DNA of 64,000 nt, taken from contig CAVTHO010000005.1 of NCBI GenBank assembly GCA_963734545.1, positions 448,001-512,000 of the forward strand. The letters are read 5' to 3'. Made by a program: the position numbers and the translations under genes. The notes under the pieces were generated by a model. It made no database searches. It was given only the letters and a program-made list of their open reading frames with translations, and was not told where the DNA came from. Source of the DNA: an uncultured Spirochaetota bacterium (GTDB lineage Bacteria; Spirochaetota; Spirochaetia; SZUA-6; Fen-1364). Below are positions 27,323 to 59,126 of the stretch, one piece after another (within the stretch, counting starts at the first letter, position 1; each line of letters begins with the position of its first letter).

Positions 27323-28249
27323 CTACCGGGCAAGGACCAGCCGCAGGATCGGGAACAAGTCGCTCCACTGCGCGCCCCCTTCCAGGGCAATCCGCGCGGC
27401 TTGCGGAGCAGCGGCAAGCGCCACCAGGGCCGCGATCTCCGCAATTTCTATTGACGCGCCCAGGACATCCCCCGTGCATCCCCCGATCCTGTTCCACGAA
27501 ATCCTCCAGAAGACAGCCAGCACGAGAAACGCGGCCAGGATGGGAATGGGAAGCAGAATTGCCGAGGCCGCAGCCACGCACACGGCAAGCCCGATCAGTC
27601 CGGGCGACAGCGACGGACGCGCGGGAAGGATGCCCGTCCCGGTTCTGACATAAGGGAGCATTCTCATCGCAAGGACTGCCGCCGTGCGGGAGAACATGGA
27701 AATCACGGGGAGCCCGGCAAGGATGAAGAGACCAGGAAGCGAGCTCAGGGCCGCATAGCGGGCCAGGAGAGAGAGGCCGATGGCTGCCCCACCCATGGTG
27801 CCGATCCGCGGGTCCTTAAGTATGCGCAGGGTCACTGTCCGGGATCTCTTCCCGTAGAAGGCGTCGGCGCAGTCTGCCAGCCCGTCCAGGTGGAGTGCTC
27901 CGGTGAGGAGCAAAGAGGCAGCGATCAGGACCACGGCCGACAGGGAAGCGGAAAAGATCAGCGCCGCCGCGAGGTAGGTGAATGAGAGAAGCGCCCCGAT
28001 CAGGAGACCCGCGGCGGGGTATGCGGCGAACATCCCGCCTTCCCGCCTGCTCTGCAGCGATTCCGGTATGGGGATGATGGTGAGAAATGCGAGCGCTGAA
28101 AAAAGGCGGGGCAGAATCCGCCGTGTATGTCGGCGCAGAATCCGTCGGGTACGGCGTACTCGCCGAACGGGTACGGCCTTCGGGCCGAGCGGGTACTCCC
28201 GCACTCCCGTACGGCGGGGCAGAATCCGTCGTGTGCGTCGGCGCATCAT
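27323..28249 (-). CDS. cobS: Adenosylcobinamide-GDP ribazoletransferase (cobalamin synthase) with a repeat-derived N-terminal extension
   Basis: [42 protein letters not shown]. Confidence 0.93.
28153..28212. repeat. Two nested 30-nt two-hairpin elements inside the cobS 5' region
   Basis: GGCGTACTCGCCGAACGGGTAC[GGCCTTCGGGCCGAGCGGGTACTCCCGCAC]TCCCGTAC; homologous to 58988-59017. Confidence 0.85.
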
Positions 28250-29300
28250 CCTGCGCTCACGCCCGCCTCAGCGAACGTGGCCATCTCCCTGATCACCTTC
28301 GCGCCCGCCTCGATGATGGGCATTGCCAGAGCGCACCCCGTCCCTTCTCCCAGGCGCATGCCGAGGTCGAGGATCGGGTCGAGACCCATGCGGGCGAGCA
28401 TGGCGGCCTGTGCCTGCTCCACCGACCGGTGAGCCGCGAAGATGTATCCCGTGAGCCTCGGTTCGATCAGCCAGGCGATCATGGCGCCTGCCGCGGAGAT
28501 TACCCCGTCGATGACGACGGGAATTCGACTTTCGGCAGCGCCCAGCACGAGGCCCGCGATCCCGCCTATCTCGAAACCGCCGACCTTGGAGAGGATGTCA
28601 ACCGGATCATTCGGATCAGGATGGTTCGTTGCGATGCTCTCCACGATGACCTGGATCTTGTGCGCGAGTCCGGCGTCGTCGATTCCGGTTCCTCGCCCCG
28701 TGAGCGCGGCCACGGGAAGACCTGTGGCCAGCGCGGCGATTGCGGTGGAGGGAGTGGTGTTGCCTATGCCCATGTCGCCGGTGCCCAGCATGCGGACGCC
28801 CTCCGCCGCAAGGCTGCGCGCGATGCCTGCTCCGCGTGCGATGCACTGCAGCGCCTGCTCCCTGGTCATTGCAGGCCCCGGCGCATGTTGGCCGTCCCCG
28901 GCGCGAGCTTTGCGTCGATCAGCGCGCCTGCGGCGACGAGGTCGGAAAGATCGGCGCGGCAGCCCATGTCGACGATCCGCACTTCGATGCCCGCATGCCG
29001 ACCCAGCACGTTGATGCCGGCTATACCGGCAGCGAAGCCGCGCACCATCTGGCCCGTGACCTCGGAAGGGTAGGCGCTCACTCCCTCCGCGGTGACTCCG
29101 TGATCTCCCGCCATGACGACAATCATCTTCCGCCCGAGATCCATGGAATCAAAACCAGTGATCCCCGCGACCTTTTCACCCAGCGTCAGGAGCCCACCGA
29201 GAGCGCGCCGGGGCATCAGGAGGTTGTCGGCGCGCGCCGCCGCTCTCGCCCTGCTCTCCGCGTCGATGTCCGCGATCCGGACGTCTGCAGTCTCACCCAT
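28246..29300 (-). CDS. cobT: Nicotinate-nucleotide-DMB phosphoribosyltransferase, frameshift in a G-run near 28876
   Basis: [52 protein letters not shown]. Confidence 0.93.
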
Positions 29301-29855
29301 TCATGCCCGTCCTTCCTGCGGCTTTATGCGGATCGGTATGCCCGCGACCATGGAATAGACCTCGTCGGCCTCGCGCGCAATCACCTGGTTGGCCCTTCCG
29401 GCACAGTCGCGGAACCGACGCGAGAGAGCGTTGTCCGGCACGATGCCGGAGCCCACCTCATTTGTCACCACGATAACCGCGCCGTTGGCGCCGCCTGCGG
29501 ATTCAGCGGCGCGCACCCCGGAGACCAGCACGCCGGCATGGACGGCGGCCGATCCCTCGTCGAAGCTGTCGTCCCCCAGGAGCATGTTGGCCATCCAGAC
29601 CGTTACGCAGTCCACGATGACCGTGCGCGCGCTCCGCAGCGCGTCGGCCAGCGCGTCCGGCACGTGAATGGGCTCTTCCCGCAATTCCCACCCCGCCGGC
29701 CGGTCCCGCTGGTGCGCGGCGATGCGCCGCGCCATCTCGTCGTCCAACGGCTGCGCGGTTGCCAGGAAGATCCGCGGCCCTTCGAATCGCCGTGCCAGCT
29801 CCAGGGCGAATCCCGACTTGCCGCTCCTGCTCCCCCCTGTGACAAGAATCAGCAC
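29301..29855 (-). CDS. cobU: Bifunctional adenosylcobinamide kinase/guanylyltransferase
   Basis: LVTGGSRSGKS, ATAQPLDDEM..RIAAH, DCVTVW, VTNEVGSGIVP, FRD..GRANQ. Confidence 0.94.
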   Translation of the reverse strand: MLILVTGGSRSGKSGFALELARRFEGPRIFLATAQPLDDEMARRIAAHQRDRPAGWELREEPIHVPDALADALRSARTVIVDCVTVWMANMLLGDDSFDEGSAAVHAGVLVSGVRAAESAGGANGAVIVVTNEVGSGIVPDNALSRRFRDCAGRANQVIAREADEVYSMVAGIPIRIKPQEGRA

Positions 29856-58949: not shown

Positions 58950-59026
58950 GCGCCGCGGTACTCCGAGGATTCTTAGCGCCGCGGTACGGGGTACTCCCCG
59001 AACGGGTACTCCCGTACTCCGCGGAT
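58950..59026. repeat. Tandem CCGCGG-TACT hairpins, the second carrying a 30-nt insert (58988-59017)
   Basis: GCGCCGCGGTACTCCGAGGAT then GCGCCGCGGTAC[GGGGTACTCCCCGAACGGGTACTCCCGTAC]TCCGCGGAT. Confidence 0.85.
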
Positions 59027-59126
59027 CTACTTCGCCATTGTGCGGCTCGTTGTCCCCCGCACCGTTTGACGCTATTTTTGTTCCATGGGCACCGCAAAGC
59101 CGCACAAGGAAAGTATCTCAACCAGA

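Follow-up and report, generated by a model that had tools for sequence, protein, structure and literature searches.

The DNA analysed here is a window of 64,000 nt from a Spirochaetota genome (G000:C5:448001-512000; the G000 assembly comprises 5.14 Mb in 10 contigs with 62–63% G+C). Two of its loci, the start of the cobS gene and the region downstream of proA, carry a 30-nt unit that folds into two hairpins and lies in the loop of a larger repeat resembling repetitive extragenic palindromic (REP) sequences. The three units of the window share the layout stem4-loop4-stem4-GA-stem5-TACT-stem5-AC, hairpin 1 being the one with the shorter stem and hairpin 2 the one with the longer stem. An initial annotation of this DNA had pointed out the three units, and their exact strings are present in the window sequence at the positions given there; as it had also described, one unit (inner) sits inside the hairpin 2 loop (TAC^T) of another (outer), and the stem differences among the three are all compensatory. 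The features of the two loci are as follows.

28153–28174, plus strand: 5' part of the outer unit, consisting of GGCG-TACT-CGCC, GA, ACGGG and the TAC of the hairpin 2 loop (from sequence and fold)
28175–28204, plus strand: inner unit, GGCC-TTCG-GGCC-GA-GCGGG-TACT-CCCGC-AC, at GGGTAC^T of the outer hairpin 2
28205–28212, plus strand: 3' part of the outer unit, consisting of the loop T, the 3' arm CCCGT and the terminal AC
28112–28152, minus strand: host REP-like repeats, GCGCC..stem..GTAC..stem..GGATTCTG, comprising one degenerate copy and the GGATT-bearing half of the interrupted copy
28213–28245, minus strand: the other half of the interrupted REP-like copy and one further REP-like copy, abutting the ATG at 28247–28249
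27323–28249, minus strand: cobS open frame, with the Pfam CobS domain from residue 52
58950–58973, plus strand: intact REP-like copy, GCGCCGCGGTACTCCGAGGATTCT, immediately after the proA stop codon
58976–58987, plus strand: 5' half of the interrupted REP-like copy, GCGCCGCGGTAC
58988–59017, plus strand: solo unit, GGGG-TACT-CCCC-GA-ACGGG-TACT-CCCGT-AC, in the REP-like loop downstream of proA
59018–59027, plus strand: 3' half of the interrupted REP-like copy, TCCGCGGATC

GTAC precedes all three units, and the loop GTAC that received the unit at cobS corresponds to 28149–28152. Once the inner unit is removed, the outer unit is a perfect 30-nt unit with 0 mismatches. All three units fold as two hairpins on either strand, with the host stems closing around them (z −2.8 to −4.3); the minimum free energy structure of the inner unit consists of its two hairpins (z −4.2), and at the proA site the REP stem closes around the two hairpins of the solo unit. 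With the host stem still able to close over the insert, the nesting of the structures is perfect.

The three units probably represent a lineage-restricted family of 30-nt, two-hairpin, non-coding and non-autonomous mobile repeats. The pattern exceeds chance by a wide margin. Among all 256 tetraloops in G000, TACT has the highest share of occurrences flanked by perfect stems; stems of at least 4 bp flank 153 of 6424 TACT and 113 of 6345 AGTA. A degenerate 30-nt pattern allowing up to two mismatches gave 35 matches in G000 versus 0 in the reversed control, and a pattern with N at every stem position gave 68 matches versus 2 in the reversed control over the 21 genomes of the genus (G000 and its 20 congeners). 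The number of units recovered in G000 was 42 with a fuzzy pattern, 60 by recursive parsing (including three matches with three mismatches, which were discarded as spurious) and 62 with a covariance model built from 20 distinct units. Pairing was assessed at sites anchored on one hairpin only, a test that does not select for pairing in the other. At the hairpin 2-anchored sites (n = 41), hairpin 1 is paired at 95.1% of positions versus 29–54% with a slid partner, and its stem occurs in the perfectly paired versions GGCG/CGCC, GGGG/CCCC, GGCC/GGCC, CGCG/CGCG and GACG/CGTC. The hairpin 1-anchored sites show the hairpin 2 stem versions ACGGG/CCCGT, GCGCG/CGCGC, GCGGG/CCCGC, ACGCG/CGCGT, AAGGG/CCCTT and ACGAG/CTCGT. 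In the 20-unit alignment, 98.3% of cells are paired versus 82.9 ± 1.7 after shuffling (0 of 500 shuffles reach the observed value), and five of the nine pairs change on both sides. Related sequences can beat shuffles without any structure; this caveat is answered by the slid controls, which are 27–61% paired, together with the many independent stem versions in other genomes. The covariation is thus kept in the larger alignment, with further copies in relatives, and the view of the initial annotation that the unit is defined by structure, non-autonomous and inserted as a discrete unit is borne out. Its remark that the unit was not recognized as a described REP class fares less evenly: Rfam gave no match at E values up to 1 for 27800–28600 on both strands, but comparable nested hairpin repeats are in print. 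The hairpin modules also reassort. In G013, the dominant unit combines hairpin 1 of the inner type (GGCC-TTCG-GGCC) with hairpin 2 of the outer type, and the opposite hybrid occurs at G000:C10 (216835) and in G020 and G015; since all four combinations of hairpin 1 and hairpin 2 exist, recombination between units is suggested.

The repeat family is confined to one bacterial family and mostly to one genus. Covariance model matches were obtained in 19 of 92 genomes of the order, namely G000 itself and 18 of the 24 others in its family, whereas none of the 67 genomes from seven sister families gave a match; the 18 are made up of 16 of the 20 congeners and one genome in each of two sister genera. 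Among named relatives, the nearest to ProA come from uncultured Spirochaetota MAGs (metagenome-assembled genomes) at 62–63% identity, a weak pointer to the phylum. Within the genus, the copy number is 83 in G014, 75 in G002, 62 in G000, 36 in G006, 31 in G020, 29 in G012, 25 in G013, 22 in G008, 20 in G003, 10 in G015, 7 in G018 and 4 in G007, with 2 each in G004, G009 and G016 and 1 each in G010 and G017 (the match in G017 is weak), and the covariance model found no copies in G001, G005, G011 and G019.

The units are hosted mainly by a larger REP-like family with the consensus GCGCCGCGGTACTCCGCGGATTyk, which has at least 260 copies in G000 versus 1 in the control and often forms head-to-tail arrays with a period of 24–27 nt. 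About a quarter of the host REP copies read ..G(C/A)GTCGCGG.. on the 5' side, resembling a CGTC tag. For a census of host sites in G000, the 12 inner-type units were removed computationally, which left 50 units. Of these, 13 occupy a REP loop in sense and 8 in antisense orientation, 11 lie in other hairpin loops, defined by at least five of six pairs across the junction, and 18 lie elsewhere. The main target is this second repeat family, which the initial annotation had not noticed. About nine of the 18 sites elsewhere follow GGAC, and those inspected belong to a third hairpin repeat. This third repeat is about 53 nt long, ends in ..CATGGAC or ..CAGGGAC and alternates with 30-nt units, and 83-nt tandem arrays of the two are found at G000:C9:252300-252520 and G000:C7:285650-285800.

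The borders of the insertions are defined to the base. In REP-like copies with perfect 6-nt arms, the loop measures 4 nt in 132 cases, 4+30 nt in 8 and 4+60 nt in 1. The 34- and 64-nt loops listed all contain whole units, in either orientation, the other loop lengths inspected hold the next REP of an array or unrelated sequence, and sub-fragments of a unit were found in none of the loops inspected. The left flank of the 50 uninterrupted units is GTAC in 34, GGAC in 8 and another tetranucleotide in 8; the earlier observation that each unit follows a GTAC thus holds for the three window units and for 34 of the 50, but 16 follow other tetranucleotides. At their 5' end, units read GG(C/G)G or CGCG; at the other end they read G(T/C)A(C/T), the unit end being GTAC in 25, GTAT in 13, GCAC in 11 and TTAC in 1. 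A left flank other than GTAC is repeated at the unit end in 0 of 16 cases and a GTAC flank in only 17 of 34. Position 28, which holds the T or C of the terminal G(T/C)AC, is matched to position 15 in every one of the 50 units (A-T in 39, G-C in 11), without a mismatch. Because position 28 always pairs with position 15 and flanks other than GTAC are not repeated, the terminal tetranucleotide belongs to the element and is not a duplicated target. Insertion is whole, precise and 3' of G(T/G)AC, without a 4-nt target duplication, which the comparison of flanks and ends in the 50 units rules out. Head-to-tail arrays of two or three identical 30-nt units were also observed (G020:C131:11262-11351 and G003:C14:141413-141472); such arrays are what would arise if a unit inserted 3' of the GTAC that ends a resident one. 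With rough gene calls from a heuristic based on G+C content at third codon positions, 31 of 51 unit loci lie outside predicted genes versus 1333 of 5000 random sites. Since most copies are outside predicted genes, the preservation of reading frames by the 30-nt length, which the initial annotation had mentioned, does not characterize the family in general; at cobS it probably does matter.

Orthologous sites without the unit exist at cobS and proA, where the initial annotation had suggested looking for them, and two other loci have them as well. In the region after proA, the unit of G000 sits in the second of two successive REPs, whereas no unit is present in G014, with four intact REP copies, or G002, with two, and 16 other species have no REP. 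The cobT/cobS junction holds four intact 24-nt REP copies and no unit in G014 and one or two REP copies in G002, while in 15 other species the conserved CobS N-terminus follows soon after the cobT stop. At the locus corresponding to G000:C8:513269, G014 has three REP-like copies and no unit. A graded series was found at G000:C9:78676. REPs are lacking there in G020 and G012; G002 carries two copies, both empty; in G014 a solo unit occupies the loop of a REP; and G000 has the same unit, its 5' part decayed, with an inner unit in its hairpin 2 loop. The order of these stages agrees with the identity of the flanking DNA, by which G014 is closest and G002 next. At C9:234739, the site is occupied in G000 as well as in G014.

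In G000, all 12 inner-type units lie at GTAC^T of another unit's hairpin 2, and the exact inner subtype is restricted to G000, G014 and G002 in the genus-wide search. Among the 21 copies of this subtype listed, 19 are in hairpin 2 loops, one is in a REP loop (G002) and one is elsewhere. No convincing insertion into the hairpin 1 loop was found in G000; four matches to a regular expression for such an insertion were rejected, as they consist of a neighboring REP or unit followed by a normal unit whose hairpin 1 is not split. The 60-nt composite of outer and inner unit could be a three-hairpin variant that arose once and spreads as one unit, in which case the nesting would be inherited. This is a possibility of some substance, if a doubtful one: the 12 inner-type units of G000 share the same position in the outer unit, without a solo copy among them, both layers are missing at cobS from the closest relative, so that one 60-nt insertion would suffice there, and the 60-mer behaves as a high-depth repeat in metagenome contigs, with the outer unit ends as its borders. 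On the other hand, the 19 nested copies occupy three host hairpin 2 stem types (CCCGT, CGCGT and CCCGC), one inner unit lies directly in a REP loop, the composites show at least five outer variants, each known also as a solo unit, and at C9:78676 the REP loop holds a solo outer unit in G014 where G000 has outer plus inner. These varied host stems and outer variants, together with the difference at C9:78676, favor repeated insertion by an independently mobile inner subtype with a strong preference for hairpin 2 loops. Spread of the 60-mer as a block probably also happens, and block spread and repeated self-insertion may operate together. The idea in the initial annotation that the unit recreates its own target holds in that insertion into its own GTACT loop is real and seemingly a separate event, as the solo unit of G014 and the composite of G000 suggest; the recursion, however, is limited to the hairpin 2 loop, to one subtype and to the three closest genomes.

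Based on the anatomy of the element and its sites, a trans-acting, structure-specific single-strand cut-and-join activity is preferred as the mechanism of insertion. Recognition would be of a single strand in its folded state, most likely as single-stranded DNA at the replication fork, and a trans-acting structure-specific nuclease/strand-transferase may cut after AC at the unit end and after AC in the target loop. The same activity could then join the unit end to the target loop, on the logic of the "peel and paste" transposition of IS200/IS605. Most units land at the apex of an existing hairpin, namely the GTAC loop of a REP in either orientation, and one young subtype lands in the GTACT loop of another unit's hairpin 2, which gives the 60-nt composite. 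Tentatively, the unit, with its 30 nt and defined ends, may be one of the smallest discrete mobile elements of DNA, with a mechanism beyond the four enzyme families tested; an unrecognized structure-specific nuclease/ligase for single strands could be responsible, or a replication or repair enzyme of the host that has been hijacked, reading only a hairpin tip with G(T/G)AC. As the unit carries the same tip as its target, the structure could then grow fractally, from a REP to a unit in it and a further unit in that, and the same machinery may build the head-to-tail REP arrays. If true, such shared machinery would explain the spread of REP families without a RAYT (REP-associated tyrosine transposase).

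Several points weigh against this cut-and-join mechanism. No enzyme was identified for the repeat, and across the 21 genomes of the genus none of Y1/RAYT, RVT_1 (reverse transcriptase), TnpB and Y2/IS91 co-occurs with copy number: all four are missing from G002 (75 copies, 96% complete) and from G012, G020 and G003, and G006 lacks Y1, RVT_1 and TnpB and has two weak Y2 matches. No longer element bounded by hairpin 1 and hairpin 2 was found in G000, and since no such hairpin pair encloses cargo, this genome has no autonomous master copy. Hairpin 1 carries GTACT too, yet is never a target, so that GTAC in a loop is not sufficient. Unit orientation shows no bias relative to the local GC skew (15/13 versus 12/11), a skew that stays within ±0.04 over most of G000, spread over its 10 contigs, and is too weak to define replichores. 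A 2-nt duplication of AC may have occurred at insertion. Furthermore, the genomes other than G000 were seen through searches only and are mostly incomplete metagenome-assembled genomes (MAGs), and movement itself is deduced from comparison of sequences.

Without a dedicated enzyme, a replicative or repair polymerase stalled in a hairpin loop could switch to another copy as template at a GTAC microhomology and return at the next GTAC. Such template switching, the main alternative of a non-enzymatic kind, is unlikely to account for the repeat, although it would fit the lack of co-occurrence of the four enzyme families, the location of the targets in hairpin loops, and the REP arrays (24–27 nt) and unit arrays (three in a row, G020:C131), which can be read as GTAC-to-GTAC additions. 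It predicts sub-fragments bounded by GTAC, and both unit loops carry GTAC, yet no such sub-segment of 7, 8, 15, 22 or 23 nt appears in the inspected loops. In 16 of the 50 units the preceding tetranucleotide is not GTAC, and half of the 50 (25) end in something else. Moreover, because the flanking stems vary widely between filled sites, the homology there amounts to at most 2–5 nt.

The initial annotation had proposed a mover encoded elsewhere, with the unit as a miniature derivative moved by a Y1 HUH nuclease of the IS200/IS605 or RAYT type or by a reverse transcriptase. A hairpin at each end and insertion 3' of a tetranucleotide without duplication fit Y1 logic, one Y1 gene is present in G000, the MAGs are incomplete, and PF01797 might miss an HUH protein that has diverged. 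Nevertheless, this origin is improbable. PF01797 (Y1) has no match in five of the nine genomes with at least 20 copies, namely G002 (96% complete), G006 (97%), G012 (97%), G020 (78%) and G003 (77%), and Y1-rich genomes are repeat-poor: G017 has five Y1 genes versus one repeat copy and G009 five versus two, G015 having two versus 10. The single PF01797 gene of G000 is IS200-like (G000:C4:159630-159989, locus L001); the stretch around it is visibly richer in A+T, and the CCACCGCC/GGCGGTGG hairpins on either side of the gene bear no relation to the unit. Thus, the IS200/IS605 TnpA, RAYT or reverse transcriptase flanked by units that the initial annotation envisaged was not found, and co-occurrence together with the context of the resident gene speaks against Y1/RAYT as the mover. 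This gene also adjoins a methyltransferase-like open reading frame (ORF) and looks recently acquired. Reverse transcriptase, TnpB and IS91-type Y2 were likewise rejected as movers on co-occurrence: RVT_1 has no match in seven genomes with at least 20 copies (G000, G002, G012, G020, G013, G006 and G003), TnpB has none in any of the 21 genomes, and Y2/IS91 has none in G000, G002, G012, G020, G013 and G003.

Other repeated elements of G000 were surveyed by self-BLAST, which revealed two multi-copy elements resembling insertion sequences (IS), repeated surface-protein genes and rRNA, none of them linked to the unit. The IS-like elements, with ORFs of 424 and 347 aa, appear by eye to be of the DDE/IS30 type and lie close together where contig C6 begins (G000:C6:7032-8429 and four other places; G000:C6:19222-20341 and 28366-29568). 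ORFs between nearby unit pairs are ordinary housekeeping-type genes as judged by eye. In one case, a gene lies between inverted REP copies (G000:C7:111238-112749, locus L175); the encoded 473-aa protein shows an H..HD-like motif by eye and has no Pfam match. Its flanking by REP copies is probably due to chance, with about two or three such genes expected by a rough estimate.

The hairpins might instead be kept as RNA or DNA signals, such as an mRNA stabilizer, a terminator or a protein-binding site, so that their spread would reflect selection for function. Covarying stems, the mostly intergenic position of the copies and the frequent TTCG loop point in this direction, UUCG being a very stable RNA tetraloop. 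This explanation is nevertheless very improbable in view of the occurrence of units in REP loops in both orientations (13 sense and 8 antisense), the lack of an orientation preference of the host REP relative to flanking genes (44 sense and 36 antisense in tandem gene pairs, from the rough gene calls), presence or absence that differs between close relatives at the same locus, and the lack of an Rfam match. A function may have been acquired after insertion.

Independent assemblies support the nested arrangement. The 60-nt composite occurs in contigs from four independent metagenome runs with many different flanks, its summed depth is far above that of the flanks, and the unmatched contig ends cluster at 28148–28153 and 28209–28212, which are the unit borders. 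One 142-nt metagenome record runs with 0 differences from the cobS coding sequence to 28190, across the outer/inner junction. This evidence consists of contigs, not reads, none of which spans the whole 701-nt stretch, and covers at most 0.27 of the sampled words per run. An artefact of assembly or consensus in a repeat-rich long-read MAG, as might be suspected from the neighboring cobT, where there is at least one probable frameshift or indel error, is practically discounted by the 12 composites of G000, by those of G014 and G002 and by the contigs from four other runs that cross the outer/inner junction.

At cobS, the repeats have remodeled a gene. The ATG of the cobS frame (28247–28249) overlaps the cobT stop, and the frame reads through the REP copies and the 60-mer; the first 51 CobS residues are encoded by the REP array and the 60-nt composite. 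By eye, the position of the ancestral cobS start codon, which the repeats have replaced, is occupied by CTG in G000 and G014 and by TTG in G002, and in G000 the stretch that separates the repeats from the conserved FLTIIPIP segment offers neither ATG nor GTG nor TTG in frame. Because no usable in-frame start follows them, the repeats are probably translated as an arginine-rich N-terminal extension of about 50 residues of CobS, a membrane enzyme. By our own reading, all six frames of both the REP consensus and the unit are free of stop codons, and therefore the open frame alone proves little. In G014, the 24-nt REP array that corresponds to window 28100–28249 encodes a repeated RRTRRILH. The neighboring cobT is a single 351-aa gene in G014 and G002 and two overlapping minus-strand frames in G000, of 144 aa (28869–29300) and 207 aa (28246–28869); the break (28866–28880) adjoins a C/G run and is either a real frameshift or a long-read indel error.

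For the question of how very short hairpin repeats spread without a RAYT, this family is unusually well suited as a test case: its discrete unit measures only 30 nt, the site of the cut is known to the base, and the target is simply a hairpin tip with G(T/G)AC. The range of 0–83 copies among the species of one genus provides contrast for phyletic profiling of the responsible gene, and both substrates can be synthesized as oligonucleotides for a biochemical assay.

Close parallels in kind come from cyanobacteria. Small dispersed repeats (SDR) of that phylum are reportedly hairpin repeats of 20–30 nt that insert at a particular short palindrome and whose mobility was deduced from filled and empty orthologous sites, with no known transposase, and they are also said to be nested in each other. 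By this description, they resemble the present unit in size, hairpin structure, filled and empty sites, nesting and lack of a transposase, that is, in kind and not in sequence. In contrast, they belong to another phylum and are unrelated in sequence, and the present unit has two hairpins and a G(T/G)AC target at the apex of a hairpin repeat. HIP1 has been described as the insertion site of SDR5 (Elhai et al. 2008, as cited in the accessible text of PMC5861425).

The host repeat resembles the REP, BIME and REPIN sequences as portrayed in the accessible part of PMC3116915, being a G+C-rich palindrome of 24–27 nt with at least 260 copies, mostly extragenic and in arrays. The 30-nt unit is likewise a short hairpin repeat with compensatory stem variation, and it too is a short, G+C-rich, mostly extragenic palindrome with 62 copies. 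Unlike REP/REPIN systems, however, the unit was found with no cognate RAYT that is flanked by the repeats and persists with the repeat population, and with no GTAG at its ends, a CGTC-like 5' side being present in a minority of the host REP only. The arrays here are head-to-tail and not alternating or inverted doublets, and the unit lies inside the REP loop, not beside it. Further REP literature compared, again from accessible text, comprised PMC2817692 and PMC3333891. According to the part of Di Nocera et al. 2013 (PMC3733652) that is accessible, REPs lie inside other palindromes in Anabaena variabilis, Thermomicrobium roseum and Halothiobacillus neapolitanus, some REP copies lie inside genes, and REPs of the CGTC superfamily "apparently lack a dedicated transposase". 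Those cases, as far as that text goes, involve one repeat inside an unrelated palindrome, in contrast to the REP loop and the loop of its own family used here, with three tiers and a defined cut.

A classical miniature inverted-repeat transposable element is ruled out, as the ends of the unit are two different hairpins and not inverted copies, and there is no target duplication. Elements of the IS200/IS605 family carry hairpins at both ends and insert 3' of a tetra- or pentanucleotide without duplication, and the element end is intrinsic. The 30-nt unit resembles IS608 and ISDra2 of that family in its end hairpins, its insertion 3' of a short target without a 4-nt duplication and its intrinsic end. 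It differs from IS608 in its length of 30 nt, in cleavage sites that abut or lie inside stems and in having no cognate TnpA, and no full-length TnpA element with the same end hairpins was found in G000, the genome searched for one. The literature used for this comparison was Barabas 2008 and Ton-Hoang 2010, both as cited in PMC3116915, and the accessible text of PMC6006769. REP palindromes are also preferred landing sites of IS such as IS1397 and ISPpu9 (Clement 1999; accessible parts of PMC1525189 and PMC12288879). These REP-targeting IS, of the IS3 and IS110 families, are kilobase-sized and protein-coding, whereas the unit described here has 30 nt and is non-coding. Mycobacterial interspersed repetitive units (MIRU) include copies that bridge stop and start codons in operons. 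Copies of the Rickettsia palindromic element (RPE) are inserted in frame, according to the same accessible text of PMC3733652. The cobS repeats resemble both in keeping the frame from the ATG that overlaps the cobT stop into CobS, with translation of the extension being probable, and differ from both in sequence.

Neither this repeat nor REP-like repeats of Spirochaetota are described in the literature searched, which did not extend to supplements. As far as the accessible text of these sources goes, there are earlier descriptions both of REP families that lack a transposase and of hairpin repeats lying within other palindromes. What is new is the lineage, the two-hairpin unit of 30 nt, a target at a hairpin tip that is fixed to the base, self-similar nesting in three tiers and the exclusion of the four enzyme families tested.

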